Origin: Eledone cirrhosa
Taxonomy: Eukaryota
Direction of reading: 5' to 3'
Length of the DNA: 64,000 bases
Assembly (NCBI GenBank): GCA_964016885.1
Contig: OZ024740.1
Span: 349,184,001 to 349,248,000, forward strand
The notes under the pieces were generated by a model, which saw nothing but the letters and a program-made list of their open reading frames with translations, had not been told where the DNA came from and searched no databases. The position numbers and the translations under genes are program-made. Position 1 is the stretch's first letter. Each line of letters begins with the position of its first letter. Of this stretch, positions 1,035 through 62,092 are shown one piece after another.

Positions 1035-4090
<3,056 letters not shown>

Positions 4091-4655: not shown

Positions 4656-5503
4656 CTTTCTTTATTAACCACAAGGGTTTACATAAAGTAGACATTAAGG
4701 ACAGTACAGGACAATACAGGACGGTACAAATGGGCATTTCTGCGTGTAAAAAAAACAAAGAGTATAATAAAAAAAATAACAATGAAAAATTCCCCAATAG
4801 GGAGGAGACTTCCGAGGGACATTTGTGGAGAAAGCCCATTAAAAGGCCACAGTGACCCTGACCACAAGAGCAAGTGCCCTCTCCCAGTTTTCCATCTTTA
4901 ATTTACAGACACATACTCAGAGTAGGCCCATTCACTCGGGTCATTCTTGCCTCTCTCACCCATCTTTCAACAAAATGCTGGGAAGAGAGCATTTCCCTTT
5001 CTACCCTGATTTTCCTTTTTAAATGAAATTTGAAAAAGTTAATCAGGGCATCACCGAAGAGATAAGTGCTCGTCTTCAGCCCTTTCAAACGTGTTCACCA
5101 TACTATCTCTTTCGCCATGGCCACCAGACAGATAAAAACTGCCTGCCCTTCCCGGCTAAAGGAAGAGGGCGGGGCAATCCTCACGATGGATTCAGCTGAT
5201 AGCCGGATCCGTCCTACACGCGTCAGTAAGCAGGTGTTCGACATAAACCCACAAGTCAGCAATTCTCGGACACTGGACGAGTGCGTGCAGGACGTTTCGT
5301 CGCCCTGCGCGCATCTCGGTAGCACTGCCAGGCCAGGGATTTCTGGAAGTAGTCCATAGGCCCCGGCCCGAAAGTTCTTCCGAAGAGATTGGTTAGTTGA
5401 TTTTCGTCGAGGCCTAGAGTTTCCCCAAGTACGTCGTCGCTCTTCCCCTCCACTAATCCTATATAGAACACCGAGGTGGAGTTTCCACCGATCACATTGC
5501 CCG
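4655..5503 (-). mobile_element. Tx1-like (L1 clade) LINE 3' fragment inserted in (TAA)n
   Basis: Minus-strand frames give KSLAWQCY, PRCAQGDET..HALVQCP (damaged CCHC knuckle), AKEIVW.TR and FVERW stop. The 3' UTR ends aataaagaaagc then (TTA)n. TAA runs at 4591-4654 and 5504-5589. Confidence 0.7.
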
Positions 5504-12499: not shown

Positions 12500-13645
12500 T
12501 ATAAGTATATATGTATGTATGTATGTATGTATACGTACATACATATATGTATACAGACGTACAGTAGTATGTATATATATACATACAGGCACACATATAT
12601 ATATGCACGTATCGTTTTACCGAACATTTATTATAATGCTCGGTTTGTTTGTTTGTAAACAAACAAACAGCCCGAATTACGCCGTACAGTGTTTAGGCAA
12701 CCACGTCACCTTTTTGTTCAACACTGACACAGGAACGATGTACTAGTTTCAAGCTTATTAGCTATCGTCAGCATCGTATACTTTCCTGCCAGATGGTTGA
12801 ACGTCTGAAAGTATATACTTTCCTTATGCATATTAACGGCTGAGCAGCCTAATTTGCATATCGAGTGAGTTCAGTCGGCCGGGCACACCGAAAAGGATAA
12901 ATGGAATAAAATGAAACGAAATTTCATTTCTCACTCTTAGTACGGCACTTACTTAAATGTAAGTATGTATGTATGTATACGTACATACATATATGTATAC
13001 AGACGTACAGTAGTATGTATATATATATACATACACGCACACATATATATATGCACGTATCGGTTTGCCGATACGTGCATATATATATACACGTATCGGT
13101 AATATGCACGTACAAACAAACAAACCGAGCATTATAATAAATGTTCGGTAAACCGATACGTGCATATATATATGTGTGTGCATGTATGTATATATATACA
13201 TAATACTGTACGTCTGTATACATATATGTATGTACGTATACATACATTCTTACATTTAAGTAAGTGCCGTACTAAGAGTGAGAAATGAAATTTCGTTTCA
13301 TTCTATTCCATTTATCGTTTTCGGTGCGCTCGGCTCGATATGCAAATTAGGTTGCTCAGCCGTTAATATGCGTAAGGAAAGTATATACTTTCAGACGTTC
13401 AACCATCTGGCAGGAAGGTATACGATGCTGACGATAGCTAATAAGCTTGAAACTAGTACATCGTTCCTGTGTCAGTGTTGAACAAAAAGGTGACGTCGTT
13501 GCCTAAACACTGTACGGCGTAATTCGGGCTGTTTGTTTGTTTACAAACAAACCGAGCATTATAATAAATGTTCGGTAAACCGATACGTGCATATATATAT
13601 GTGTGCATGTATGTATATATATACATACTACTGTATGTCTATACG
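12500..13645. mobile_element. Retrozyme-like non-coding element, family A (~425-440 bp unit), partial tandem plus inverted copies
   Basis: Unit 12520-12960 restarts at 12961 and is mirrored at about 13070-13645. No ORF. Hammerheads at 12735-12777 (-) and 13422-13464 (+). Confidence 0.75.
13422..13464 (+). ncRNA. Minimal type I hammerhead ribozyme (family A)
   Basis: acgatg-CTGACGA-tagct-aata-agctt-GAAA-ctag-TA-catcgt: perfect 6 bp stem I, palindromic ACTAGT stem III, GUA site. Confidence 0.85.
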
Positions 13646-13646
13646 T

Positions 13647-14068
13647 TATACACATACAGCCCATTATCACATGTACCTATATGATTGAGGACTGTCATTT
13701 CAGTATACACTGCCACACATTGGTGATTGTTGCCAGGGTCCTCATAATCACCGCCACACACTACTTCTGCACGTTTTGAAGAGAAGACTGTTGAATCATG
13801 GATAATCCTCAGGCTCCAAAGACAAAGTGAACGTTCATGGACGAGATCAGAGTAAACAGCAGGTGTTTTACTAGTTTCACTAGTTTCTTTCTCTCGTGAC
13901 TGTTGTTTGTTATTTACTGCTTAAGTCATTTCAGCATGTAGAAAAGAATTATTGCCAAAGGTTGCACTGGACAAACTCTCGTTTTCATATTACACATTGG
14001 ATCCGGATTTGTGCCGAAGTCACAATTAAGATATAGTTGACGAGAAGAATGACAATCTGTAAAAGAAG
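13647..14068 (-). pseudogene. IL17: IL-17-like pseudogene, exon 2 (3'-truncated)
   Basis: Aligns with 60210-60646 (LLLQIVILLVNYILIVTSA...DLVHERSLCLW...EVVCGG...HQCVAVYTEMTVLNHIGTCDNGLYVY). A 17 nt deletion creates TGA (13985-13987), there is a TAA at 13921-13923, and the C-terminus is cut by the family A element. Confidence 0.9.
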
Positions 14069-15166
14069 CTGCAATATATAAAATATTAATCGAGATATTG
14101 TTTCATAGTTTTAATATGACATTTATTCAGATAAGATTAGAGAATAATAGTATACTTCAAAACTATATAATTTATAAAAATCAATGCCAGAGACATTTAT
14201 TTATTACACCATATTCGACGACTGATCATGAAAGAGGCCATATATGGTAAAAACTAAACGTTTTTTTTTACAATATATATATGATATAGTGTATATATTT
14301 ATACAATATATATATATGATATAGTGTATATATAGTGTATATATATTTATTATTGTTTAAATTGAAAAGAGCTAACAATAGACGTTAGTGTGTGCATCTG
14401 TTCACATAGGAGGAATGTAGGACAAAATAATCACAAGTATTATAAACAGAGTGGTGGTCTGAGTTGTCATATTTCTGCGAAATTGTAAATATACAATAAT
14501 GTCTACAGTTTAATGAAATAACAGAGAGTGTGACAGAGGCGGAACAAAATTTAAAAACCCTGTAATGATATTTAAAGCTTCATAATTAATGCATACTTTG
14601 TTTTTGTAGAGATGCATTTCAATCAGGGTATAAAGTTTATATTTATTCCTCCGAACACAGTCGATAACTATATTTTCCACATTTGAAGACAATCAAACAA
14701 CTGGATTAAATTATTTTGATATGTAAAACAATATATTTTACAAACAGAAGTTATACAATGATGGAAATATTAAAAAGAGATACAAACAAAATTAAGTAAT
14801 GAAAAAGCAAGAGAGAACGTGTAAAGAAGGGCATATCTGGCTGAATAGGAAAGCAGAAGAAAGATTATAAATGGAATAAATGAGAAGAAAATTAGAGAAA
14901 TAACAAGCACCACGCGAACAATGGCAAACGACACCCGCTGCAACAGCCAACGCAACTCGTGGGGCTGCTTCCTCAGACGGGCGGCTAAGGTTCCGATTTT
15001 TCGGAAGAGTTCGGTTGTACAGAATCCGAGGAGGCCTGAGGTCTAAACGACAACCGGCGCAAAAGGTATATTCTTTCTCACGCCCGTCAATAATACACAC
15101 AAACACATACACATATATATATATATATGTCATATACCATTTGTTGAATCTACATACAATTCATTA

Positions 15167-21719: not shown

Positions 21720-24700
21720 ATCAAAAGATGGTTAAAGGAGTTCCATGTATTTTATTATGCGCATTTCAAAAACAAACATCATCATGCAATAATATTTGTG
21801 TTTTCATCAGATAAAACAGGAGAACATGATATGAAGGCTAAAAAACACTTGTGGATAGTGCAGTTTTAAATCAACATATGAAAAGTAGTTTTAGATTGAT
21901 GTGTGATATTGGGAAAAATATTTTATTTAGAGAGGGGGGGTGGAAAGGATGAAAAAAGGGGAGGAGATGAGAGTGAAGGTGGAGAGAGAGAGATGGGTGA
22001 TAGAGAGAAAGAGATAGTTTTTATAACTGAGAAAAGATATATTGTTTTACATAGAAAGGTTGAGAACCGTTGGAAGATAATGTATAAATTAAAAGAATTT
22101 GAAAATTAACGAAGGGAAAGAGAGGGAGTTGATATGTATTGAGATTTAAAAGTTTGAAGATAGAGAGAAAAAATAATAATTGCGGATGAATATTCTAACG
22201 TCAAAAAGGTGTATGTTTATAAGTATTATGGCAATTTCAAAATTAACGAAGAGAAAAAAATTATTAAGGTTTGTGTGTTGAAGTTAAAGTTTGTATATTG
22301 AAGGAATTGATAATATGTGCGAAGAAAGAGTTAATATGTATTACAATTATTAAGGTTTGTGTATTAGATGATTTGAGAAAAATAATGTGAAGTTAAGGTT
22401 TTTATATTGAAGGAATTGATAATTTGTGCGAAGAAAGAGTTAATATGTATTAAGAATGAGTTAGTTGATGGGAAGAAAAAAAAAAAAATTATTAAGGATG
22501 AATATTCTAGCGTCAAAAGAAGGAGAGGGAGTTGATGTATTGAGATTAAAAAGTTTGATGATGGAGAGAAAAAATAATAATAATTGCGGATGAATATTCT
22601 AACGTAAAAAAAACAAATGTATATGTTATGAAGGATTTTACAAGGTGAAGATAGAATGAGGGTAATGAGTAAACAAGTATTATAGAGTGTATAATGCCCT
22701 TTGAAGTAAGGTAGGAAGATGGGTATATTTTAAAGAGGTGTATGTATATGTGCCTTTGAGAAAAGATTCTAAATTGATAAAGAATTGAATATTAGCTGTA
22801 TACTTTGTGAAAAGTCCTATGGAATTTATGCAGGCAGATAGAAAACAAATCTGTACGTTATTATAGAATCTAGATTAGAGATAATGGTAAATTTTTCATT
22901 TAGGCAGAGATTACAGATTTTAGATAGAGAGCTGTTCAAGTATGAGGACGCAGAAGAAACCTTCTTCCAAAAGATGGTATATTTAATGTTTTTGTCTTTC
23001 AAGGACCATATGTGTTCTGAGAGAGCCGTGTTGGTTCTTTTAAGTTTGTATTTAAAAGATGAATGATGATTATAGAGACGAGCTTTAAAAGAGGTGGAAG
23101 TGGAGCCAAAATAGGTGAAGGAATAGGTGAAGACAAAAACATTAAATATACCATCTTTTGGAAGAAGGTTTCTTCTGCGTCCTCATACTTGAACAGCTCT
23201 CTATCTAAAATCTGTAATCTCTGCCTAAATGAAAAATTTACCATTATCTCTAATCTAGATTCTATAATAAATAGACGTACAGATTTGTTTTCTATCTGCC
23301 TGCATAAATTCCATAGGACTTTTCACAAAGTATACAGCTAATATTCAATTCTTTATCAATTTAGAATCTTTTCTCAAAGGCACATATACATACACCTCTT
23401 TAAAATATACCCATCTTCCTACCTTACTTCAAAGGGCATTATACACTCTATAATACTTGTTTACTCATTACCCTCATTCTATCTTCACCATGTAAAATCC
23501 TTCATAACATATACATTTGTTTTTTTTACGTTAGAATATTCATCCGCAATTATTATTATTTTTTCTCTCCATCATCAAACTTTTTAATCTCAATACATCA
23601 ACTCCCTCTCCTTCTTTTGACGCTAGAATATTCATCCTTAATAATTTTTTTTTTTTTCTTCCCATCAACTAACTCATTCTTAATACATATTAACTCTTTC
23701 TTCGCACAAATTATCAATTCCTTCAATATAAAAACCTTAACTTCACATTATTTTTCTCAAATCATCTAATACACAAACCTTAATAATTGTAATACATATT
23801 AACTCTTTCTTCGCACATATTATCAATTCCTTCAATATACAAACTTTAACTTCAACACACAAACCTTAATAATTTTTTTCTCTTCGTTAATTTTGAAATT
23901 GCCATAATACTTATAAACATACACCTTTTTGACGTTAGAATATTCATCCGCAATTATTATTTTTTCTCTCTATCTTCAAACTTTTTAATCTCAATACATA
24001 TCAACTCCCTCTCTTTCCCTTCGTTAATTTTCAAATTCTTTTAATTTATACATTATCTTCCAACGGTTCTCAACCTCTCTATGTAAAACAATATATCTTT
24101 TCTCAGTTATAAAAACTATCTCTTTCTCTCTATCACCCATCTCTCCCTCTCCACCTTCACTCTCATCTCCTCCCCTTTTTTCATCCTTTCCACCCCCCTC
24201 TCTAAATAAAAAAATTTTTTCCTCGTACATATTTTTCCCTTCGTTAATTTTCAAATTCTTTTAATTTATACATTATCTTCCAACGGTTTTCAACCTCTCT
24301 ATGTAAAACAATATATCTTCTCTCAGTTATAAAAACTATCTCTTTCTCTCTATCACCCATCTCTCCCTCTCCACCTTCACTCTCATCTCCTCCCCTTTTT
24401 TCATCCTTTCCACCCCCCCCCCCTCTCTAAATAAAATATTTTTCCCAATATCACACATCAATCTAAAACCACTTTTCATATGTTGATTTAAAACTGCACT
24501 ATCAACAAGTGTTTTTTTTAGCCTTCATATCATGTTCTCCTGTTTTATCTGATGAAAACACAAATATTATTGCATGATGATGTTTGTTTTTGAAATGCGC
24601 ATAATAAAATACATGGAACTCCTTTAACCATCTTTTGATCTTATATATTATGTATACTCCAGTCCTACAAACTGTAGAGTGCTTCTTATCCGATATCTGC

Positions 24701-24737: not shown

Positions 24738-24805
<68 letters not shown>

Positions 24806-24808
<3 letters not shown>

Positions 24809-25647
24809 TATGTACACGTACATACATATATGTATACAGACGCACAGTAGTATGTATATATATATACATACATGCACACATATATATATATGTACGTATG
24901 GATTCACCGAACATTTATTATAATGCTCGGTGTGTTTGTAAACAAACATCCCGTATTAAGCCGTAGTGTCCAGCAACCGTCATTGCTCGTTTGTTCAACA
25001 CTGACAAAGGATCGCTGTACTAGTTTCAAGCTTATTAGCTATCGTCAGCAACGCATACCTTCCTGCCAGATTGTTGAATGTATATACTTACCTTATGCAT
25101 ATTAACAGCTGAGAAACCCAATTTGCATATCGAATGGGTTAATCGGCCGGGTGCACCGAAAACGATAAACGGAAAAAAATGAAACGAAATTTCATTTCCC
25201 ACTCTTAGTACGGCTGTTACTTAAATATAAGTATGTACACGTACATACATATATGTATACAGACGCACAGTAGTATGTATATATATATATATACATACAT
25301 GCACACATATATATATGTACGTATGGATTCACCGAACATTTATTATAATGCTCGGTGTGTTTGTAAACAAACATCCCGTATTAAGCCGTAGTGTCCAGCA
25401 ACCATCGTTGCTCGTTTGTTCAACACTGACAAAGGAACGCTGTACTAGTTTCAAGCTTATTAGCTATCGTCATTATATTAAATGTTCGGTGAATCCATAC
25501 GTACATATATATATGTGTGTGCATGTATGTATATATATATACATACTACTGTGCGTCTGTATACATATATGTATGTACGTGTAGATAATTATATTTAAGT
25601 AACAGCCGTACTAAGAGTGGGAAATGAAATTTCGTTTCATTTTTCCC

Positions 25648-25650
<3 letters not shown>
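24806..25650. mobile_element. Retrozyme-like family A, tandem plus inverted copies in (TA)n
   Basis: Unit repeats at 24806 and 25229. Hammerhead 25013-25053 (-), second one truncated at about 25472, octamer ATTTGCAT at 25121-25128. Confidence 0.75.
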
Positions 25651-25706
<56 letters not shown>

Positions 25707-30039: not shown

Positions 30040-30534
30040 ATTACTTTTGCGAAGTTTTTTATATGAAATCGTGTGTCGAAACAAATATTGTTATAGATGG
30101 GGAGGGCCATATTTGTGTAATATTGCCAGAATTAATAACAGAACACACTCACTGTTTGGTTGGTTTTCGCTTTTCGCTTCTGTGTCTTTTATATCGGTAA
30201 TCTAATTTATTCGGTCCTCAATGTTGCCATTGACTGACCGACGGTCAAAAATAATACAGATACAATATAGACACAAAGAGGAAACAATAGCACCACTGAC
30301 GATGTTGCAGATGTGCAACGAAAGAACTTTGATAAACTATATATATGTGTTTGTGTCTATATTGTATCTGTATTATTTTTGACTATCGGTCAGTCAATGG
30401 CAACATTGAGGACCGAATAAATTAGATTACCGATATAAAAGACACAGAAGCGAAAAGCGAAAACCAACCAAACAGTGAGTGTGTTCTGTTATTAATTCTG
30501 GCAATATTACACAAATATGACCCTCCCCAAGTAT

Positions 30535-30540
<6 letters not shown>
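30040..30540. mobile_element. Fold-back copies of the 3' terminal repeat of the Naiad-like PLE
   Basis: Matches 40745-41041 in both orientations. Hammerhead-like CTGACGA-t-gttgca-gatg-tgcaac-GAAA at 30296-30323. Confidence 0.75.
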
Positions 30541-30598
<58 letters not shown>

Positions 30599-35540: not shown

Positions 35541-38500
35541 AGCTTAAAGGTTATTGAAAGACACTGTTTTCTGTTATATAAAAACTACAATATCAGCAGA
35601 ACTAATCCGCTTCTTAAAACACTGTGTTTCCTTCAAAATATACACAACAAACATATCAAAACAAGTAAATAATTTATTATTGAACAAAACACAAGCTGAA
35701 CGACTAAAACACACAATAACAGTTAATATGAAAAGAACAACATACACAAAAGTTAACGAACTTTACAGACAGAAACGCATTAACGGTAAGGAAGTCCGAA
35801 ATCTCACCACACCAAACGAGAGGGATGACTTCATGAGCGTCATTCGACGTGAAACGAAATACGCCCGAAACGAATGCAATAGGCATTTCAATAAGAAATT
35901 ATAATGGATGAATAAGAAAAAACTAGAAGAAGGAAAAATAGAATATTCACAAAAATACCCAGATAACATCAACAATATCCGTATGACTGATGTAGAACTA
36001 CCGGCAGAATTTACCAATGACCACACAGTAAATATTTATGGGAACACTTTAATCAGTGAACAAGAACAACAAATCCTGCAGCTACCACCAAAATTTGCAA
36101 TCTACAAAAAGATTAACCCTATTGAGTGCAAAACGGAGCTGGAAAAGTGTTTCACAAAAATACGTTGGAATGCAAAACTAAACAACAACAACAACTATAC
36201 GGACAACAACAACAATAATAACGATAGTAGTAATATAAACAATAACTCTGAGTAAGAGAACTTGATCAAGAAAAAACTTACAAATATCTAGGTGTTTGTG
36301 AAGGAGACGGAATCAAGCACTCGACAATGAGGGAAAGGATAAGGAAGGAATGTTACCGCAGAGTAAGAGCAATCTTAAGAATGGAATTGAATGCAAGGAA
36401 TAGGATCGATGCCATAAACACGCTTGCCATACCAGTAGTAACCTACAGTTACAATGTCATCAACTGGTCAAGCACAGAGATCCGTAGGCTCGATACAAAA
36501 ATTCGAAAATTCTTAACCATGCACAGAATGCATCACCCTAAGGCAGATATAGATAGAATATATCTCCCTAGGAAAGAAGGAGGACGTGGGTTAATCCAGT
36601 TAGACATTGCGTTGAAAACTGCAACAATTGGATTATCTACATAACTAAGGGAATCACATGATTGGATGATCAAACTCGTTTTGAAACACGAAAGCATCAA
36701 AAGATCATATTCCATTACAAAAGATGCACAAAGATACAGTAATGGACTACAAATTTCAGAAGTCCCATTTACTGCTGAAATGGAAAACACAGAAAAAGCA
36801 AAGCAGGTAAAAGTAACTGCAAAGAAAGAACTGTTACAGAAACTGGCTAAGAAATGGCAAGAAAAGCCTCTGTATGGAAAATACCCAGAGCGAGCTAACA
36901 ATCCTGATGTTGACTAAACTTTAACCCATCAGTGGTTGGCATCCTCTGGACTGAAATCGGAGACTGAAGGACTGATTATATCGGCACAAGATCAGTGTCT
37001 GCCAACAAAAAATTACCAAGCAACATAATAAAGAATGGATGCAGCCCATTATGCCGTGTGTGCAAAAAACAACCAGAGACCATTGACCATATAATTTCAA
37101 TGTGCAGTCCTATAGCTCCAACCGAATACCTAAACAGGCATGACAGAGCTGCACAATACGTAAATTGGATAATGTGTAAGCATTTTGACCTGCCCCATCA
37201 AAAGAATTGGTGGGAGCATCAACCACCTCCCATACTTGAAAAAGGTCACATCTCAATCTTGTGGAACTTTAGCATCCAAACAGACCGAAAAATAGATGCA
37301 AATAGACCTGATATAATATTGAAGGACTTTAAAAAGAGGGTATGCCTGCTAATTGATATGTCCGTTCCAATAGACAAGAATGTATCTATAAAAACTTTTG
37401 AAAAATTGAGCAAGTATAAGGACCTGGAGATAGACATTGGAAAAATGTGGAAATTGAGAACTAAAACAATACCAGTGGTTGTGGACGCTCTGGGAATGAT
37501 ACCTAAGGGGTCTAATGATTACTTATCGCAAATCCCAGGAAACCCGCGTATAGGAGAAATACAAAAGATAGTGCTAATGGGAACTGCCCATATACTAAGG
37601 AAGATTCTGTCAATATAAGTACATCACAAGTCTAAACACTAAAGATGCATGTGTGAGTATGTATGTTCTTTCTTGAACATGGCGGACCTTGTTGTCTCTT
37701 GAGGTCACTGGTTGTGACTTGGTGATAAATCGTATGAACATAAAGCAAGATAAATGCAACTGTAATAATAATAATAATAATAGAAACATTAACTACAGAC
37801 ACAGCAGCAGCGACCACAGTAGTAATAACGGTAACAATACGAATAACAACAACAACAACCACAGTGGTAATAATAGAAATAATATTTGTAGCAACATTAA
37901 TGACAGACACAACAAAAACAAGAAACATAATAAAAGTAACAACCACAATGGTAGAAATAACAGTAACAACAATAACGGTGGAGAAAACAACAACAATACA
38001 TCTAACAATCACAGCAACAATACATCTAGCAATCATATCAATAATAATAATGCTAATGACAGGAACAACAACAACCACCATAATAACAATAATGGCAACA
38101 CACAACTACGACGATAGATATAATGACAACCCCTTAGAGAAACTATTCTTCAACCCAGCTGACAAAACATATAAGATGGGTAATAACTATCCTACGAGGT
38201 TACCCTTTAATAAAAGAGTTTGCATACCACAACAAATAGATGACGAGACAGAGGCACAGTTCACCATAGCTAGAAATAAGATTAAACAAATAGTAGACCG
38301 GTTTACTAAGAGACAGAGCAGACCAGAGGTCCAACAACTTGGGAGGAAACCTGTAGAAGGCTTGGTTAGCCTCAAGCAGCGCACAAGGGATGGTGAGGTA
38401 GTATGTCTACCTACGGATAAGTCTGGTAGGATGTCAATAGACAGCATGCCGAACTACATCAAGGCTACGCAATCCCACATCACCAACACGAGCGAAATTG

Positions 38501-41039
38501 CACAGCAAATACATGATGGGGGAGAGAAAATCCTCAACACCACATGATGATGTGGACCGACATTCTAAAGCCAAGCAGACGCACTGCCAACAACTTCCAG
38601 GCGTCCAACAATGGCGTACCACACTTGTATGGGCTCCGCAAAGACCACAAGACAGTCGACGACCCGACAATAGGACCACCAACAAGACCTGTATGCGGAT
38701 CAAATATAGCTAGCAACTACAGGATCTCCTAATTCCTCTCAATGGTTATACGCCCCATAATCAAGATGTCCCCAGATGTATGTGACAGTACAGAGGACCT
38801 CCTCAGCAGAATCAGTGAGTGCAACAAAAACAGGAACCTATCCAACTGCATAATAGGCAGTATGGATGTGGTATCACTGTACCCATCGATTAACATTGAT
38901 TTTGCTGTGGTCAAATGTGTGGAGATAATCATTGAGAGTGACGTGGAGTTCTGCGACGTCGACACAGACGAACTGGGCCTCCTACTTAGACTCACCTACG
39001 ACACTGACTACCTAGAGAGCCATGACCTTAGACGTTTCTTCCCCAGTAGACCCATAAGAGGTAGACTCCCCACCATAACCTCAATGGCAAAAAAGACTCC
39101 CATGGGAAGGTGAATTGGGTGGACCAAAGCTATACGGGCCCCCAAAACAATGATCAGGTCAGAAAAATGGTCGCACATGCAATAGGAGCTAGTATCAAAA
39201 CTACCCTAAAGGGCCACATATTAAAGTTCAGCGAGAAGATCTACACCCAAAATGAGGGAGCAGCCAATGGCGTCAGCATAGCTGGTGACGTTGCCAACCT
39301 TTTTATGGTATGGTGGGAAAGGAGACTCAAAGATCTCCTTGATGAGAGCTCCATAGACCTCATCATGTACTCTCGTTACGTAGACGACATCAATATAGTA
39401 ATAAGGACATCCCCACAAGAGAGCACTAACAAGTTTGATTTAGAACGTAGCACAATGGAAAGCATCCAACAGATAGCTAATTCCATACACCAGAGTATAA
39501 CTGTAACTATCGACTACCCTTCCAAACACCCTAACAATCAACTACCTGTATTAGACACGGAACTCTGGATTAACACTATAGACGAGAGAGCCCAAATTCT
39601 CCACTCACACTATGCTAAACCCATGGCCTCCAAATACATGATACTCAAAAACTCAGCAATGTCCAGTAGTGCTAAGTTTAATATTCTGATCGCAGACTTG
39701 GTACGAGTGATGAAGAACGTGTCCCGCATGTGCGACCCAACAGAAATGGAAAGGCACATCCAACACTTCATCAACCGCATGCAGTTCTCTGGCTACAACC
39801 AAAGAGACAGAATCAGAGAATACGAAGGAGCCACGGAGAAGTATAAGACCCTCATAGAACTGGACATGAAAGGAATTTGCCCATTATACAGGAGCAAATC
39901 ATGGAATAGCTAAGATAGGGAAAGCCACCTCATGGTACGATAACCAGAGATACAAAAGTGTCATGTTTGTGGACGCTACGCCTGGAGGGAAATTAGCTAA
40001 CCAGTGTAGAAACTCCCTGAGAAAGACCCACTTAAAGATTAAGGTGGTAGAAAAGCCAGGAACCAGCATAAAATCCCTGATCAGCAAAACCTACCCTTTT
40101 GAGAAAACCCACTGTACTAATAGGAAATGTATCATATGTAGAGTAAACCCCCGGATAAACTGTTAAACTAGAAACGTAGTCTATAGCATAAGATGTCCAG
40201 AGGGTACTTGCAGAAACATGACAACAACATAAATAGACGAGACAGCTCGTAGCATAGGTGAAAGGATAGACCAACACTAGGGGGAACTAAAAGGACGAAA
40301 AAACGGTTCAGTACTATACGAACATGCCAGACAACAACACGACAGTAACATAGACAACATAGAAATTAGAATAATATCTAAACATAGAAATGACCCAGCA
40401 GATAGGCAAATCAGAGTGGCCAGCGAAATAGAACTTAGAAGGCCAAGGCTAAACAGAAAAAATGAATGGAATAACAACACCCAAACAAACAACACTGACC
40501 TAAGAGAAGTATAAATAAATAAATACACAAGCACAATAACAACAAACACATATAAACACACACTAGTAAACTAAGATAGAATACATTAACCAATACACAG
40601 TCATCCAAACAAGAACACACATCAAACAAAACACTATACACACACGCAAACGCATGCGCAGAGAAGACAAACAAAAATAAATAAACAAATAAATAAATAA
40701 ATAAACAAACTAAATAAAGATGGCGTAAGCATACAATGCAACGGGAGGAAACATAATAGCACCACTGACGATGTTGCAGATGTGCAATAAAATAACTCTG
40801 ATAGACTATATATATGTGTCTATATTGTATCTGTATATTTGACCGTTGGTCAGTCAATGGCAACATTGAGGACCGAATAAATTAAATTAACCGATATAAA
40901 AGACACAGAAGCGAAAACCAACCAAACAGTAAGTGTGTTCTGTTATTAATTCTGGCAATACTATTACACAAATATGATCCTCCCCAAGTATAACAATATT
41001 TGTTTCGACACACGATTTCATATCAAAAACCTCGCAAAA

Positions 41040-41041
<2 letters not shown>
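35541..41041 (+). mobile_element. Naiad-like Penelope element (RT plus GIY-YIG), degenerate, interrupted by a Dong copy
   Basis: LPPKFA, TDKSGR, PPTRPVC, GSMDVVSLYPSI, YSRYVDDI, DYPSKH..LPVLDTELW, MFVDATPGGKLA, CTNRKCIIC, NVVYSIRC..*IDETARS. The 3' repeat has a hammerhead-like motif. Clade assigned from motif recall. Confidence 0.8.
36253..37762 (+). mobile_element. R4/Dong-clade LINE, 5'-truncated copy nested in the Naiad-like ORF
   Basis: Highly similar to about 6748-8247. Ends aactg(taa)n. ORF 36995-37618 retains CCHC, RHD and the PD..D endonuclease motif. Confidence 0.9.
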
Positions 41042-41135
<94 letters not shown>

Positions 41136-41318: not shown

Positions 41319-41525
41319 ACAAAGGAATTGTGGTAATGAACCTGATGGACCATAACGCACCAGAGTACTTAATACTTAGGGTAGTAGAGTGGGAAATAGG
41401 AAAAAGTATGACCCCGACGGCAGACCTCAAGCCGTTTCGACGGCTATTTCTGAAATACGACGGCTATTCCAGAAATAGCCATCGAAACGGCTTGAGCTCT
41501 GCCGTCGGGGTCATACTTTTTCCTA

Positions 41526-41569
<44 letters not shown>

Positions 41570-41571
<2 letters not shown>

Positions 41572-42546
41572 TAAGTTAAAAATGTACATCCACATATGTA
41601 TACTGAAATATGAATACACACACGTATACATATGTAGATGTACCGAGTTTTTCACTGGTCACTTTACTGTGAGTGTCCAGCTATTCTGTATGTAAACACA
41701 CAGACAAACCGGTTTTTAGAGTCATACTGGTTTTTGAGGAAACACCTTTCCTCTATTCTTCAGAAAGCCAGACAAGGAATATTGAACTAGTTTCGTTGTT
41801 GTTACAACTCATCAGCAATATTTACCTATCTTCCGGCCTTTCTAGAGAATCGTAAAAGCACATATCGTTATATGCTTTTTCTATGAAAATTAGTAGTGGG
41901 CAGACTAATTTGCATAGAGCGTGAGTACGTACCGGTTCAATGGAGACGATAAAAACAAATAACGAAACGTATGTATACATATGTGGATGTACATTTTTAA
42001 CTTAATTGTTTAAGCGTCAGTCATACAAAAGTGAGTTACAAACGAAACGAAATTTAATTTCGTTTCGTTATTTGTTTTTATCGTCTCCGTTGAACCGGTA
42101 CGTACTCACGCTCTATGCAAATTAGTCTGCCCACTACTAATTTTCATAGAAAAAGCATATAACGATATGTGCTTTTACGATTCTCTAGAAAGGCCGGAAG
42201 ATAGGTAAATATTGCTGATGAGTTGTAACAACAACGAAACTAGTTCAATATTCCTTGTCTGGCTTTCTGGAGAATAGAGGAAAGGTGTTTCCTCAAAAAC
42301 CAGTATGACTCTAAAAACCGGTTTGTCTGTGTGTTTACATACAGAATAGCTGGACACTCACAGTAAAGTGACCAGTGAAAAACTCGGTACATCTACATAT
42401 GTATACGTGTGTGTAGTCATATGCATACTAGTATTTCAGTATACATATGTGGATGTACATTTTTAACTTAATTGTTTAAGCGTCAGTCATACAAAAGTGA
42501 GTTACAAACGAAACGAAATTTAATTTCGTTTCGTTATTTGTTTTTA
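41570..42546. mobile_element. Retrozyme-like family B (~466 bp unit), inverted plus tandem copies in (TA)n
   Basis: 41570-41968 mirrors 42055-42475. gtatacatatgtggatg recurs at 41973 and 42439. Octamer at 42115-42122. No ORF. Confidence 0.75.
42208..42252 (+). ncRNA. Minimal type I hammerhead ribozyme (family B; mirror about 41778-41822 on minus)
   Basis: aatattg-CTGATGA-gttgt-aaca-acaac-GAAA-ctag-TT-caatatt: 7 bp stem I, 5 bp stem II. Confidence 0.85.
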
Positions 42547-42579
<33 letters not shown>

Positions 42580-42658
42580 TCATATATATATATGTATATA
42601 CATATATATTTATATATACATATATAGAAATATACATATATATATATTTATATATATA

Positions 42659-46329: not shown

Positions 46330-47232
46330 GTTTCTGTTTTCGTAATTCATCAATGCCTATTGCTTTAGCCCTTTCTATTCCATTATTTATTAGTAAGGGT
46401 TGGTACTGTCTTTCGAGCAGAATTTCTTTAATTCTTGAAGGCTTTTATTTCGCGTTTCATAATTGGAGACAATTGGGCAAATTCTTCTTGCTAGATTAAA
46501 AGGGATGTTCGTCTTTGTGTGCTTTGGATTGCTGAGGTGAATAGCAGGTATTGTTTGGAATCTGTTGGTTTGTAGTGTATGTCAGTTTCAATATTTGTGT
46601 CTTTTTCATGATTAAGATGTCCAGAAATGGGAGTTGATCTTGGCTGTATTCCATTGTGAATTAGATGTGGTTATTGATGCTGTTAATTAAATTTTTAAAA
46701 TCATTTAGTTGGTCGAGTGTGTGAGACCAAAGAATAAGGCAGTCATCCAAGTAGCGTTTCCAATTCTCTGATAAATATTTGTGGAAGTTCAAGCCGTATT
46801 TTGATTTGGAGTGTTAGTATATCTGGACTTCCAAGTATGCCATGACTAAGTTGGCGTAAGTTGGAGCAACGTTTGTACCCATCGCAGTCCCCGATATTTG
46901 TTTGTAAGTACTGCCATAGCAATCAAAACTGTTGTTCTGTAAAATAAATGTTAATCCCTCGGTGATGAAGCTTTTTTTCTATTCTGTCAGGTATCTCATT
47001 GGAGTATTTTTCTAGCCAGAATCCTATTGCTTCTAGTCCGTATTGGTGTAGGATCGTCGTGTAGAGATTCACTACATCGAAAGACACAATAATAGTGACG
47101 CTGTTGACATGTTTGGGGAGGTGGTTTAAGAGGTCCATGTCGTCTCTTACAAGGCTTGGTATGTATTTGAGAATTGGTTTTAGTAGTATGTCTATAAAGT
47201 TGCTCAGCCTGTGTGTTTCACACTGTGAGCCG
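46330..47232 (-). mobile_element. Degenerate PLE reverse transcriptase fragment
   Basis: SFDVVNLYTTI, GTAMGTNVAPTYANL, WKRYLDDC, LPFLD, YKPT; many frameshifts. Confidence 0.85.
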
Positions 47233-47283
47233 TAAATAAGTCGACCGTAAATAAGTCGACCGTAAATAAGATTAATAGCTCTA

Positions 47284-47672
47284 GGAGAGCCATGAACGAC
47301 ACCACATCTTTTTAACTTTGATTTTGAAAGTAGGTTTATAATTATTAATTTTGATTATACATTTGAAGCTTCTCGGGGTCTTTTTGGGGAGAATCATAGC
47401 CGGTGTTGGTCCTGGTGTGAAATTCGATCCTGGTCGGCAGTAGGGATCCCGGTAAACCTTTTCAGTTTTTTTCGATGGGAGGTAAAATGAAAACTGAAAA
47501 AGATTACATGTTCCTCACGATCAGGATTGTACCCAAGACCAGGATCTCTACCGCTCTAGTACCTACCGCCAGTCCACTGAGACAGCCACGAAAATCTCCT
47601 GAAAATTCATACTTATAAACCTACTTTCAAAATGTTCAATACAAATTGATATGGTGTCGTTCATGTCTCTCT
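47284..47672. mobile_element. MITE-like element with imperfect ~60 bp terminal inverted repeats
   Basis: gagagccatgaacgacacca...ttttgaaagtaggtttataa mirrors ttataaacctactttcaaaa...tggtgtcgttcatgtctctc. Confidence 0.5.
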
Positions 47673-53851: not shown

Positions 53852-56800
53852 TAATAATAAATTTGAAGACTAAAATCCAAAGAGGGCTCGATAAGGATAA
53901 ATATATATCAAATATATAAGAACCGTAGAGCTACGGTTTTTATATATTTGATATATATTTATCCTTATCGACATCTCTTTGGATTTAAGTCTTCAAATTT
54001 ATTATTATTATTACTATTTGGCTACCTCGGTTGAGCACTCTATTGACTTATATTCATCATGCAGAAACAACATCTGAATATTTCTACAAAGAACATACCC
54101 GTACCAAGCAGGAAACATATCTAAAACTCCTGATACAGAAAACAGACGCGTTCATTAAAAGGTTGCGTTGGCGTGCCTTTTATTTCGATAATCAGGAAAA
54201 AGCAGACAACAAACAGGATAAATTTGGGTTTAAAACCTATAATAACCCTCTGAGTAACCCAGCATTGCTACCCTTCGAAATTGATGTCTTGGAACTCATA
54301 CGGAGTATCAAATTTCAGAATAGGAGCAATTCCTTCAAGCATGACCTGAAGAATATAATTCGTTCTATTAAGGATTCTAATGCCGTGCACGTCCATTCCA
54401 ACAAAACTGGCAATCTATATCAAGTGGGGCGCAGTACTTACCATCAACTGCTACATAATACTGAAACTAAGGATTACCGTAAAACTAATCGGAGCGTCAT
54501 TAATGAAATCAACCATGCTAGGTTTAAAATCACCTCTGATCTCAACATCCTGGACCGGACTGAACCTCTGGACCCTATTTCTCCCCACTTTACTATGAAG
54601 GATCACAAATCCACTTTTCCGAACAACCCCTCTATTCGGCTTATTAACCCTACGGAGTCCGATTTAGGTAGACTTAGTAAAAGGATTCTTGATAGAATTA
54701 TACCTGAAATTAGAAGTTTGGCCCCTCATGCACTGTGGAACAATCTTTCGCGGTGATTGATTGGTTCAACTGCATATGCAACAAGGAACATTGCCGTTTT
54801 ATCCAATTAGAGATCAATAATTACTACTCCTCCATCACTTTACCACTTCTCCTTAGAGCTATCAATTTCGCTAAAACACTCACAGTGGTTAAGGATTTCG
54901 AAGTTGATGTCATCCTCAATGCCCGTAAGTCGGTGATTAATTTCGACGACTCTATTTGGATTAAAAAATCTAATAGCACCCCATTCGACATGAGTATGGG
55001 CGCCAGCGATTCTGCGGAAGTTACTGATCTTATCGGCCTTTTCCTTCTTTTCTCTATCAAGGAAGAATTCCCCAACGTGGGCGGTGGTTTGTACCGTGAT
55101 GATGGTCTTTTGACCATGACTAAGTGCGGCCCACGTGCTTGCGACAGGTTCAGAAAAGAACTCACAGCCTTCTTTAAAGGCTTCAACCTCTCCATACAGG
55201 TTGAGGCCAACCTCTCGGTCGTTAATTACCTCGACGTTACCCTCAATTTATCGAATGGCTTGCATTACCCATATAGAAAGCCGAATGATACGCTTAATTA
55301 CATAAGCAAGCATTCTAACCATCCTGGCAGCATAACCAAGAACCTGGTAAGAAACGTTTCTTTGAGGCTTTCCCGTCTATCTACTAACGAGCATATTTTC
55401 AACGACCATTCCACATATTACAATGAAGCTCTTGCTCGGAGTGGATTTGTCGATAAGGTAGCATATACAGAATACGAGAATAGACCTAGAAGAAATAGAT
55501 CCTGACGCATTATATGGTATAACCCACCATATAATATAGAGGTGGCCACACCATTAGCTAAGATCTTTCTCTCCCTTATTATGAAGCATTTTCCCCCTAC
55601 ACATAAATATAGTAACATTTTTAATAGAAACTAATAAATACTATTAAATACTATTAAAATGTCTTACTCTGCGACTCCTAACCTTGCACATAACATCACA
55701 GCTTCAAATTTAGCTAAACTACCTAGCCGTAGGAACACATGCAACCCTGTAATTAGTACTAACTGTAATTGTAGGAATCGGGTTGACTGCCCCTTATCCG
55801 GGAAATGCCTCTCTAGTAACATTGTCTACAAATGTAAGGTTGAAACACCCACGTCCCGTAGGGCCTACATAGGGTTAACCGCCAATAGATTCAAGCAGCG
55901 TCTTTACATGCATACCCATTCTTTTCATAACCCTTTAAGAAGGAATATGACGTCACTTTCAGCTGATATCTGGAGTCTAAAAGACAACCACACCCAATAT
56001 AAGTTACACTGAGAGATCCTAGCTAGGGCTAGATCGTATAACGGAAATAAAAGACCATGTGACCTCTGCGCCGCTGACGCCCTAGAAATACTCTACGCCA
56101 AAGATCACATCTTAAACAAAAAATCTGAGGCAATTTCGGCTTGTAAACATAAATTGCACAAAACTTTCCTGTATTACAGCCCCACATTATACCCTAACGG
56201 ATAGTACGAACTATACGCGGATATTTTACGGTTTGATGTGGTAGCTAAGTATATGTTATGTTTATATCATTACTTATTTGTATAGGTAAAAATATATATT
56301 ACCTGTATGTTTTGTGAAGGTACGTATACTTTCTCGTACGTATATTTGATTGTATATGTTATGGCGTATATATTATATATTCTGGTACATATGCTTTTGG
56401 TTACGTAAGTTTTGCTTCTGTGTTAGTATGCGGGTTCGTACGTTTGTAGGGTGTATGTATATGTGTACTTTGTGTTTTGGTTGACGTACGTCTCCGAACA
56501 TATGTGTATGTACATGTAGGTATGTGTGTGCGCTTGTTATATACGTATTTATTTATTTATATACGTTTATTTAATTATATGTATACACGCACACACACAC
56601 ACATATATATATTTTTTTTTTTTATATATATTTTTACGTGTATTTGGTGTATACATTCGTATGCGTGCGGGTACAGGCGTTGCGTGGGTTCTGTATGTGC
56701 GTGCGGGCTTTTTTTCTTCTTTTTTTGTGTGTACGTACGTGTATGTGTATACCTATGGCGAGCGTTTTCGCGTATGCTTGTGTATGTTCGTATATGGATG

Positions 56801-58802: not shown

Positions 58803-59650
58803 TGAAAAAATGAAACGAAATTTCATTTCTCACTCTTAGTACGGCTGTTACTTAAATATAAGTATGTATACGTACATACATATATGTATACAGACGTACA
58901 GTAGTATGTATACATATATGTGTGCATGTATTATACATACAGTAGTATGTATAATACATGCACACATATATATATGTACGTATGGATTCACCGAACATTT
59001 ATTATAATGCTCGGTGTGTTTGTAAACAAACATCCCGAATTAAGCCGTACAGTGTATATATATATACATACATGCACACATATATATATGTACGTATGGA
59101 TTCACCGAACATTTATTATAATGCTAAACAAACATCCCGAATGTATATATATATACATGTATATATATATACATACTACTGTACGTCTGTATACATATAT
59201 GAATGTACGTATACATACTTATATTTAAGTAACTAAGAGTGAGAAATGAAATTTCGTTTCATTTTTTCCGTTTATCGTTTTCGGTACCCCGGCCGATTAA
59301 CTCACTCGATATGCAAATTAGGCTGCTCAACCGTTAATATGCATAAGGAAAGTATATACTTTCAGACGTTCAATCATCTGACAGGAAGGTATACGTAGCT
59401 GACGATAGCTAATAAGCTTGAAACTAGTACAGCGTTCCTTTGCCAGTGTTGAACAAATGAGCAGCGATGGTTTCTAGACACCGTACGGCTTAATTCGGGA
59501 TGTTTGTTTACAAACAAAGCGAGCATTATAATAAATGTTCGGTGAATCCATACGTACATATATATATATATGTGTGCATGTATGTATATATATATACATA
59601 CTACTGTGCGTCTGTATACATATATGTATGTACGCATACATACTTATATT
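58803..59650. mobile_element. Retrozyme-like family A, fold-back copy downstream of IL-17
   Basis: Octamer at 59311-59318 and hammerhead at 59393-59435 (+). Closest to the 24806 copy. Confidence 0.75.
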
Positions 59651-59893
59651 TATATAATATATATTGTAAATATAGTAAAGCTTAGAAACAGTGAAGTTTA
59701 GAAAGTAAAAATTAAGATTGGAAGATACATAGTTTGAGGATTATATTTTGAAAAAATCGAATATTCGATAAGGATATGTAAGGATATATATATATATATA
59801 TATATTTAGGTTTGTTGGATGGTCAGTCCTCCTCTTGTCTATGATTTTCAGCCCCATGGATTTTATCTGTTATATTCCTTTGATATATTTCGA

Positions 59894-60121: not shown

Positions 60122-60646
60122 TTATTCCTCATACTCGTTATTTCCCTTAGTTATCACATCAACTTTCCGTGCATAAACACAGGATGTTGCCACATTTATT
60201 ACAATTGGACTATACACATAAAGTCCATTATCACATGTACCTGTATGATTGAGGACTGTCATTTTAGTATATACTGACTCACATTGGTGATTTTTGTCGG
60301 GGAACTCAACATTATCCCCACGACATACTACTTCTGTACGTGATGGAGGGAAGATTGTTGGATCATGGATAATCTTCAGGTTCCAAGGACAAATTGAACG
60401 TTCATGGACGAGATCAGAAGAAACAGCAGGTGTTGTACTTGTTTCATTCTCTCGTGACAGTGTTGTATCGTTATTTACTGCTGGAGCCATTTCAGCATGT
60501 AGAAAGAATTTATTGCCGATGTCTGCACTGGATAAACTCTCGTATTGGTCTTTTAGGTCAGTTGGTATTTCACATTGGATCTGGATTGGTGCCGAAGTCA
60601 CAATTAAGATATAGTTGACGAGAAGAATGACAATCTGTACGAGAAC
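60122..60646 (-). CDS. IL17: Interleukin-17-like cytokine, exon 2 (174 of 179 aa)
   Basis: Open frame after acceptor tttatatattgcag. Hydrophobic signal VLVQIVILLVNYILIVTSA. IL-17 motifs ERSICPW, DPTIFP..EVVC, C.SVY..MTVL, C..G.Y.Y, VATSC. Sequons NDT, NET, NHT. Confidence 0.9.
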   Translation of the reverse strand, partial: VLVQIVILLVNYILIVTSAPIQIQCEIPTDLKDQYESLSSADIGNKFFLHAEMAPAVNNDTTLSRENETSTTPAVSSDLVHERSICPWNLKIIHDPTIFPPSRTEVVCRGDNVEFPDKNHQCESVYTKMTVLNHTGTCDNGLYVYSPIVINVATSCVYARKVDVITKGNNEYEE

Positions 60647-62092
60647 CTGCAATATATAAAATATTATATCAAAGAGTGCTTCATAATTTTAATGTGACAC
60701 TTATTCAGATAAACAAATCAGAAAATAATAGTTGAGATGATTTGAAAATAGCTGACCAGAAAAATACATATATTTAACGAAGATTATATGAGAGAAGTGT
60801 GTGTGTGTGGCGGGGGGGGGGGAGTATTATAACAATGAAGATGAAATAGAGTAGAGATATTATTGCCAATTTAAACGTTTATTACTGCTACATAAAGAAG
60901 TGGTTTTTCTCCGTAGTCTAAGAAGTTAGACTTGAATATGTGACATTTCAGAAAAAATAATACACTCGCTCATGAAACAAAGTAAACATCTTTAGATCAT
61001 CTCATTCATTAGTAAATTTATAACTTGGGGTTGCAGATGTAATGCAGTGTTGCTGTGTAATTACTTACCCATATATATATTTCTACTTTTTTCGGATTAG
61101 TTGAGTGGAATGGTGTCATTATATATACTGTTATATAGTCCAACATATATACTATACTGGCTGCCAACAATCCCAACGATCGCTAATATTCCTTTCACCC
61201 TTTCGAAATTGATAAATAAATACCGGTCCAGTACTACTGCAGATACTTCCCCCATATTTCTATCTCACTCCATATCACAACAATGTCTCACAATCTATGG
61301 AAAACATTGTATGTGATCAGAGCAAGTGATTACATAGGCTCTTCTTAAAGTTAAAATATGTCCCAGAATCCACTCTAAGTTATGGATAGGTTAGAAGGGA
61401 AGAAAGAAAGAGAGGAAACTAAAAAGAGGTAATACTATATGAGTTTCTAATATAGTTTCTAATTTCACACATGAATTACCAATCGTTAGGATGCTATTAG
61501 TCATATAATTCTGCAATACATTTTGCCAATGTAACATTTAGAACCTGTCTAACCTGTTAAAATATTTTCAATATGTTTATTATTTCTATGATTATTTCAG
61601 AACCTCATAATACTGGTATTTTATTTAACTACATAAATGTATCTCTATTTAAGGCTAACATTACCCATATTAAATTATTATATTTATTATTATTTTACAT
61701 TAGTTACATATGTTACATGTGATCCCAGTTCAATTCTTACTGCATCTCATCTCTTAAATTTTCAGGTCAAAGTTAATTCTTCTGATAACGTAGATAATAG
61801 TTTTAACAATATACTAACTCACAGTGAAAAATACATTAGATAACCCAACATAAACCTACATTAATATAAATTAAACATCTAATAGTAATCTGCAGTGAGG
61901 TATAAAGACAAGAAATCCTACTGGGGTGCAATCGTTTCATACATATATTGTCATAGGAAATCATATGTGTCAATTTAAGTTATTTCAAGTAAATAGCATT
62001 TTTGTTAAACTTTCTTTACCCATAACTATGTATTACTACATAACTACATAAAGGAATATATGAGATAATAATATTAATTAATCGTTACTTAC

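Follow-up and report, generated by a model that had tools for sequence, protein, structure and literature searches.

By its sequence, the insertion at 41567-42547 of the window (the whole 64-kb stretch of Eledone cirrhosa DNA that was analysed) is a non-LTR retrozyme, high in copy number and non-coding, with a predicted ribozyme. This insertion, family B, was probably copied by a Penelope-like element (PLE), and its octamer, which is the motif of host U6, U6atac and MRP genes, probably serves as its own promoter.

A 466-bp repeat with a predicted hammerhead

The insertion consists of a minus-strand arm of 0.9 unit placed back to back with a plus-strand arm of 1.2 units, inside a (TA)n target (left flank 41524-41567, right flank 42545-42658). 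The left arm (41567-41969, minus strand) has its outer end, site X, in (TA)n. The right arm (41973-42547, plus strand) is built of the 466-bp repeat, and its outer end, site Y, is followed by (TA)n; a 3-nt filler (41970-41972) forms the junction between the arms. The stretch 41973-42081 (109 nt) is repeated 466 nt further on with 100% identity. The 466-bp unit described in the earlier note is thus present, but as two opposed arms rather than as a plain tandem.

The modules named in that note are found in place: a hairpin (42041-42069), TTTATCGT (42077), ATGCAAATTAG (42115), CTGATGA (42215), GAAACTAGT (42236) and TGTTTAC (42332). The hairpin has 13 bp, its core is common to family A, and a second copy lies at 42507-42535. 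It is contained in a "tail" (42007-42081, plus strand) that extends from end X (about 42007-42012) to end Y (42081), and a second tail copy (42473-42547) forms the right end of the insertion. Further along the plus strand are a 12-mer, TATGCAAATTAG, with an octamer core (42114-42125; minus-arm copy 41905-41916), a TATA-like box, CATATAAC, 42 nt after the start of the 12-mer (42156-42163), a predicted transcription start at about 42186-42188, and a predicted type I hammerhead (42203-42255) with a predicted cut after 42245. The hammerhead copy of the left arm lies at 41775-41827 on the minus strand. What had been noted as a tgtttac block corresponds to a predicted hairpin (42326-42345, plus strand) in which a G-C pair closes a UUUA loop, and the same loop is found on different stems in families A and C. 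An internal inverted repeat with two 20-nt arms occupies 42387-42458 (plus strand).

B has the make-up of a retrozyme: its units, a few hundred bp long, stand in tandem and each contains one type I hammerhead. Arrays have a period of 465-469 bp, are tandem and back-to-back, and lie mostly in (TA)n. Across the 3.0-Gb genome, the 32-nt ribozyme core matches exactly at 5,192 places and the octamer combined with the hammerhead core at 24,979; reversed controls gave 0 in both searches. The monomer RNA is predicted to be strongly self-paired (-166.2 kcal/mol, z -12.2, 0/100 shuffles). No coding capacity was found beyond a chance 140-aa frame overlapping the left edge, and neither a reverse transcriptase (RT) nor a nuclease is encoded.

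The predicted hammerhead has a stem I with a UA bulge, a 5-bp stem II, a 2-bp stem III with the palindrome ACUAGU, and a GUU triplet. GUU, the triplet of most B copies, is weaker than GUC, which occurs as a variant in B, or GUA, the triplet of family A. Family A has U-U where B has the usual G10.1-C11.1 pair. Across six sequences, 92% of 102 cells are paired, against 32-50% in slid controls. Both-sided changes are seen in 6/17 pairs, and the covariation score is reached by 0/500 shuffles, although the six rows amount to two lineages, a modest depth. These compensatory changes support the claim of the earlier note that the ribozyme structure is under selection. The same covariation had also been taken as an argument for selection on the octamer, which does not follow, since the stems say nothing about the octamer; the case for the octamer rests instead on the presence of the 12-mer and TATA at host U6, U6atac and MRP genes and on their recurrence in four other hammerhead families. 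An Rfam scan of the 64-kb window returned 0 matches at the gathering threshold. Cleavage of dimers through a palindromic stem III has been described (PMC4209133). Hammerhead-like motifs that are not accompanied by the 12-mer occur in the window at 3126-3928, 21914-24218, 9863, 53579 and 59898, two of them in long inverted elements.

As family A we took the related insertions at about 12.5-13.6, 24.8-25.7 and 58.8-59.7 kb of the window. The first (12519-13643) has two arms, with one end at X and the other elsewhere; the second (24799-25653) ends at X and Y, and the third (58804-59652) at a Y-like site and X. Two interleukin-17-like exons are also present in the window, one at 60122-60688 (minus strand; Pfam IL17, E 8.9e-8) and a second copy, 82% identical, at 13647-14151. 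The proposal that A and B conserve the same modules in the same order is borne out, and the alignment spans the whole unit. Outside the hammerhead, the similarity of A and B exceeds shuffled controls in 8/8 tests, with 0/1000 dinucleotide shuffles scoring as high. Local alignment of B with two A copies against these shuffles gives z 10.0-17.2 on the 5' side of the hammerhead and z 6.8-10.1 on the 3' side. When the 12-mer is cut out, the signal is weaker but persists (upstream z 6.2, 0/200; downstream z 3.0, 2/200). These alignments confirm that families A and B are homologous outside the hammerhead.

Paired insertion ends and A-to-G marks

The hairpin and TTTAT modules are the fixed ends of the insertion, a point absent from the earlier note. 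Outer ends fall at the two sites X and Y, about 70 nt apart, with the 13-bp hairpin between them. Both ends were called in 30 of the 49 B insertions examined, and all 30 pair X with Y (15 each way); X/X or Y/Y ends number 0 in this set, and all 30 combine a partial tandem with an inverted arm and carry the tail at one end only. In the other 19, one end was called, the second arm being very short or absent, the region cut off, or the end a variant. The loci were drawn from the first 100 listed core matches, mostly on contig C1, plus 15 chosen for an octamer variant, and L155 was left out of the end census. Family A uses the homologous sites, with X/Y in 10/10 insertions whose outer ends are both readable (by eye, 29 sources). 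Inner arm ends are evenly spread round the unit (n=56, Rayleigh p 0.67), and 0/56 lie within 8 nt of the predicted cut, against 2.0 expected. Targets are AT-rich or microsatellite DNA. Where the target is something other than pure (TA)n, duplications, microhomologies included, measure 17 nt at L365 and 12 nt at L138, the rest of the 8 loci inspected being uninformative. At L008 and L153 the flanks are mutually inverted, not direct.

PLEs are described as forming partial tandems with an adjacent inverted copy and a 30-40 bp tail at one end, in (TA)n targets (PMC8557442). The PAc protein of the green anole is reported to extend both strands and to start reverse transcription at two sites that bound the genomic tail (PMC11167929). 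Given this precedent and the X/Y ends, the hairpin and TTTAT modules are most simply read as RT-binding and start sites. We infer that the tail-bounding sites X and Y are a pair of reverse-transcription start sites, and B was likely copied by the enzyme of a PLE.

No autonomous PLE that shares the tail or 3' end of B, or a pLTR, was found in the 64-kb window. A broken PLE at 37744-41042 retains an RT, a zinc knuckle, a GIY-YIG-like end and a pLTR with a damaged hammerhead. As a parent of B this element (about 37.7-41.0 kb) was rejected: it has its own pLTR and hammerhead, shares neither tail nor promoter, and is separated from B by a (TA)n tract and another repeat. Its pLTR also builds an inverted element at 30085-30542. 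PLE-like ORF fragments occur at 971-2174, 53989-56012 and 46923-47354 of the window, with a GIY-YIG match at 1785-2171.

B insertions also carry A-to-G changes, several of them in the octamer. At L136/137 (C1:30.83 Mb), 17/17 full units of both arms are identical and all have a triple A-to-G change in the octamer, which is the only difference from the nearest insertion. The same triple-edit haplotype is found at L365 (C1:85.31 Mb), L366 (C1:322.55 Mb), L367 (C6:54.09 Mb) and L368/369 (C18:30.95 Mb); all five are young insertions, and the stretches fetched from them (one with a masked flank) contain no intact octamer. Genome-wide, A378G, which changes the middle octamer A, occurs in 114 units and at no fewer than 16 loci among 100 listed; the loci among the matches listed comprise 5 triple, 3 double and 8 single edits. 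The control change T380C, two bases on, was seen in 4 single units at 4 loci, in no case together with another change. The nearest relative without the edit varies among the edited loci, with 7 different insertions in that role, and three loci share one A378G haplotype. This sharing, together with the triple edit at five loci, indicates that broken octamers do spread; the octamer-breaking variants count against selection on the octamer. Two other interpretations were rejected: the triple-edited octamer is not a dead end at one locus, since 5 loci carry it, and L365 is not a mixed source locus, since no intact octamer is found there. Either one RNA lineage may have seeded the five insertions, or an array can be transcribed without the octamer.

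Outside the octamer, array-wide changes comprise 17 A>G and 5 T>C (p 0.017; 49 insertions, L154 left out), in a set that includes 15 loci chosen for the octamer edit. The excess in the 34 unselected insertions is not significant (8 vs 2, p 0.11), and a count that includes the divergent L154 has no A>G bias (5 vs 6). The 5' neighbours of the array-wide A>G sites are U in 8 cases, A in 7, G in 2 and C in 0. Single-unit changes outside the octamer comprise 7 A>G and 14 T>C. Between L370 and its nearest relative there are 12 changes, 8 of which are A-to-G. The best reading of these marks is ADAR editing of the sense RNA before reverse transcription; RT error bias may be an alternative source. On the editing reading, the template would contain the promoter, and the two arms would derive from a single molecule. 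The marks suggest that each insertion was templated by one RNA, edited by ADAR and probably circular.

Array structure bears on the same question. Substitution-free arrays of 20-27 units (L136/137, L368/369) favour rolling-circle copying. At L371 (C5:63.09 Mb), both arms alternate between two unit types that differ in their A-to-G marks, a pattern that may stem from a dimeric circle; DNA-level turnover is also possible. Periodic variants at L151, L155 and L371 may likewise reflect DNA-level turnover, so long arrays need not all be rolling-circle products. If B were a DNA-level satellite, a MITE or a rolling-circle DNA element with the hammerhead as a passenger, its long inverted arms, its tandem arrays and the periodic variants of older arrays could be accommodated. 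The two different fixed ends, never alike on both sides, the random inner joints, the strand-biased A-to-G changes common to both arms and the compensatory ribozyme changes are contrary to such an origin, which is already disfavoured and appears very improbable.

A U6-type motif in six hammerhead families

Host snRNA genes were retrieved from the genome with Rfam models. Upstream of host U6, U6atac and MRP genes, the motif TATG(C/G)(A/T)AAT(T/G)AG is found at -77 to -79, with a TATA at -30. The genes that bear it are two single U6 genes, a U6 array on C19, the best-scoring U6atac (1/10 fetched) and MRP (1/1). It is absent from 14 other dispersed U6 copies and from the 9 remaining U6atac copies, which have unrelated flanks and which we read as retrocopies. 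With a matrix built from the 5 host promoters, the six A/B sites rank 1-6 of 127,956 window positions. When each promoter is left out in turn, the true site comes first in 5/5 cases, and 8 U1/U2 upstream regions reach at most 4.4 bits, against 15.0-22.9. This provides a candidate U6/U6atac/MRP promoter consensus for Eledone cirrhosa.

Host U1/U2/U5 promoters (L056-L065, L036-L055, L207-L213) have AATTAA at -90, TCAGT at -57 and a TATA-like box near -31. A matrix from 14 of these promoters does not fit families A, B, C or D (full-length scores -17 to -34), whereas left-out host promoters score mostly +10 to +55, with two at +3 and -6. A U1/U2/U5-type Pol II snRNA promoter was rejected for B, in which the host AATTAA (-90) and TCAGT (-57) layout is not seen. 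The promoter block shared with host snRNA genes that the earlier note had envisaged is therefore found for the U6 type (U6, U6atac, MRP) and not for U1/U2/U5. A TACCTCCCTT-like element near -260 is common to host U1, U2 and U6.

The 12-mer with a TATA at host-like spacing has 248 matches in the genome, compared with 5 in the control. Among the segments fetched, a hammerhead core (at most 1 mismatch, not in the query) lies 80-125 nt downstream in 20/30, compared with 2/30 control segments; of these 20, 3 are A copies that contain small insertions, and chance may account for 2. The fetched matches, together with 12 additional loci, define at least four more families (C, D, E and F), each with its own hammerheads and, in C and D, its own paired ends. 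These families share little else with A and B and are largely unalignable. Across the six families the 12-mer is invariant, with its predicted pairing partner on the 3' side in A, B and D and on the 5' side in C, E and F. The older families C-F lie at L179-L205 and L222-L241. In family C, the ribozyme is followed by a pyrimidine tract and CAG, resembling a splice acceptor. At L223 (C3:148134562), the 12-mer and a TATA at host spacing precede a short stretch ending in T8; it lacks a hammerhead core and may be a Pol III gene not yet annotated or a degenerate copy of family F. A metagenome scan for 12-mer, TATA and hammerhead returned 113 loci, of which 6 passed a loose stem filter and 1 was well formed. 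This one (L269:506-662, minus strand), single-copy on a metagenome contig, combines the same 12-mer with a TATA box at a distance of 54 nt and a type I hammerhead of good form; this arrangement may exist in other organisms.

From these matches, the 12-mer and TATA likely serve as the promoter of B. As to the polymerase, we place Pol III somewhat below an even chance and consider Pol II a strong contender, and a 12-mer that lacks any promoter role appears unlikely. The 12-mer-to-TATA distance is 42 in B and 43 in A, against 47-49 in host genes; a TATA at host spacing is thus lacking in A and B and present in family C, whose matches pile up at the host spacing of 48. Runs of T4-T6 fall within the tail and promoter of A and B, and host U6, U6atac and MRP genes end in T6 or longer. 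Together, the short A/B spacing and the T-runs leave the polymerase between Pol III and Pol II. The T4-free stretch after the predicted start (272-329 nt) is not significant (p 0.13-0.22), and T-run depletion was rejected as a sign of Pol III. The 12-mer resembles what we take to be an optimal POU site, which makes "octamer" a fair name; it lies in a proximal position, and the host genes that bear it are of Pol III type 3.

That resemblance underlies a second reading, in which the same retrozyme uses the 12-mer as a POU-factor site in a Pol II promoter of octamer and TATA. It differs from the preferred account only in the polymerase, so that its standing is simply the Pol II share given above. 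The template RNA must span the T-runs and the octamer, as edits there are copied; families C and F have T5-T8 right after the hammerhead, and the 12-mer-to-TATA spacing ranges from 41 to 48 across families. Moreover, since host U1/U2/U5 also have their TATA-like box near -31, the TATA is no mark of Pol III here, and A13 has TCAGC 26 nt before its TATA, like the TCAGT of U1/U2/U5. Newt satellite 2, reported to contain an octamer and a PSE, resembles this arrangement. Its promoter is described as an snRNA promoter for Pol II (PMC2220036). The misfit of A, B, C and D to the U1/U2/U5 matrix weighs in the other direction, as do the restriction of the 12-mer, among host genes examined, to Pol III type-3 genes and the concentration of family C at spacing 48.

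The 12-mer might instead have no present promoter role, being kept by descent or as the arm of an RNA hairpin, with transcription of the arrays reading through from nearby promoters. A predicted RNA hairpin does take in the 12-mer in A, B and D, its partner covaries in A and B, the A/B spacing is half a turn shorter, and the triple-edited octamer is present at 5 loci on 3 chromosome-scale contigs. Nevertheless, the 12-mer is constant in six families though its predicted pairing partner differs, it matches host promoters in sequence, polarity and downstream TATA, and within B the stretch from 12-mer to TATA varies by 0-1.3%, against 4.4-4.7% in the flanks (the insertions not being independent).

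On the preferred account, the 12-mer and TATA of one unit would start transcription about 20 nt before the hammerhead, and the transcript would run through the next unit, promoter included. Two hammerheads would pair through the palindromic ACUAGU and cut, and the monomer would be circularised. This highly paired RNA would be edited by ADAR, with octamer As among the targets, as genomic A-to-G patterns suggest. A staggered cut in AT-rich DNA would provide two primers, of which one would start RT at X and the other at Y on a single RNA, with the tail hairpin between the two sites, producing the end pairs observed. Each enzyme would roll round the circle, covering from 0.1 to 16 or more units. 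The two cDNAs would then be joined at random positions, and the resulting back-to-back arrays would again supply the next round with an upstream promoter.

A broader and more doubtful proposal is that at least six retrozyme families depend on a U6-type (Pol III type 3) promoter captured from the host, and that single ADAR-edited RNA circles survive or multiply as RNA, each of them seeding several insertions. If true, rolling-circle reverse transcription would keep an upstream promoter that ordinary SINEs lose on copying, and the genome would record the edits of individual RNA molecules along with a strict one-site-per-end rule of PLE integration.

Comparison with known elements

The class of element and the logic of its insertion are already known. 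What is new is the sharing of a U6-type motif by six families, the strict pairing of the ends and the editing marks that extend over whole arrays. A PLE origin of non-LTR retrozymes has been argued before (PMC7229834; bioRxiv 10.64898/2026.07.22.740005), and RNA editing figures in the available text of PMC7229834 only as a possible cause of circRNA heterogeneity. Our search of the accessible literature turned up no account of retrozymes in cephalopods, of a U6-type promoter in a retrozyme or of paired X/Y ends, although supplements may list such families; in the main text of an octopus repeat annotation (PMC13282606), ribozyme and retrozyme are mentioned 0 times. The literature consulted treats as open both the transcription of animal retrozymes and the way in which PLE machinery produces tandem and inverted insertions. 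B offers testable answers, namely a defined candidate promoter borrowed from host U6-type genes and array-wide A-to-G marks, which favour a single circular template for each insertion and the writing of RNA edits into germline DNA.

Like the metazoan non-LTR retrozymes described in PMC7229834 and bioRxiv 10.64898/2026.07.22.740005, B is a non-coding tandem with one type I hammerhead per unit and thousands of copies, and the RNA is strongly self-paired in both; PLE-driven mobility through circles has been proposed there. Its unit of 466 nt is longer than the 170-400 nt given for invertebrates in PMC7229834 and lies within the 51-972 bp range of bioRxiv 10.64898/2026.07.22.740005. In the parts of the published non-LTR retrozyme accounts consulted, no promoter, fixed paired ends, inverted arms or genomic editing record was found; B shows such ends, arms and A-to-G marks, and a candidate promoter.

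PAc and other PLEs resemble B in their partial tandems, adjacent inverted copy, one-end tail and AT-rich or (TA)n targets (PMC11167929; PMC8557442), and also in the palindromic stem III and, if X and Y are read as above, in two tail-bounding RT start sites. Unlike PLEs, B has no ORF, and its tail is longer, measuring about 70 nt (56-59 nt in family A) where 30-40 is given for PLEs. PAc is reported to show no start-site difference between strands in vitro, whereas each site is used once in B insertions; this strict X/Y rule sharpens the two-start-site model of the PAc study.

With respect to transcription, the SM-alpha element of Schistosoma is a hammerhead repeat transcribed by Pol III and described as SINE-like (PMC6765202). 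It needs tandem copies, because the promoter falls at the 3' end of the cut monomer (PMC6765202). Newt satellite 2 (Coats et al. 1994, cited in PMC2220036) is, like B, a tandem hammerhead repeat with a built-in snRNA-type promoter. That promoter is reported as Pol II (PMC2220036), whereas B matches host Pol III type-3 genes, with its octamer near the TATA.
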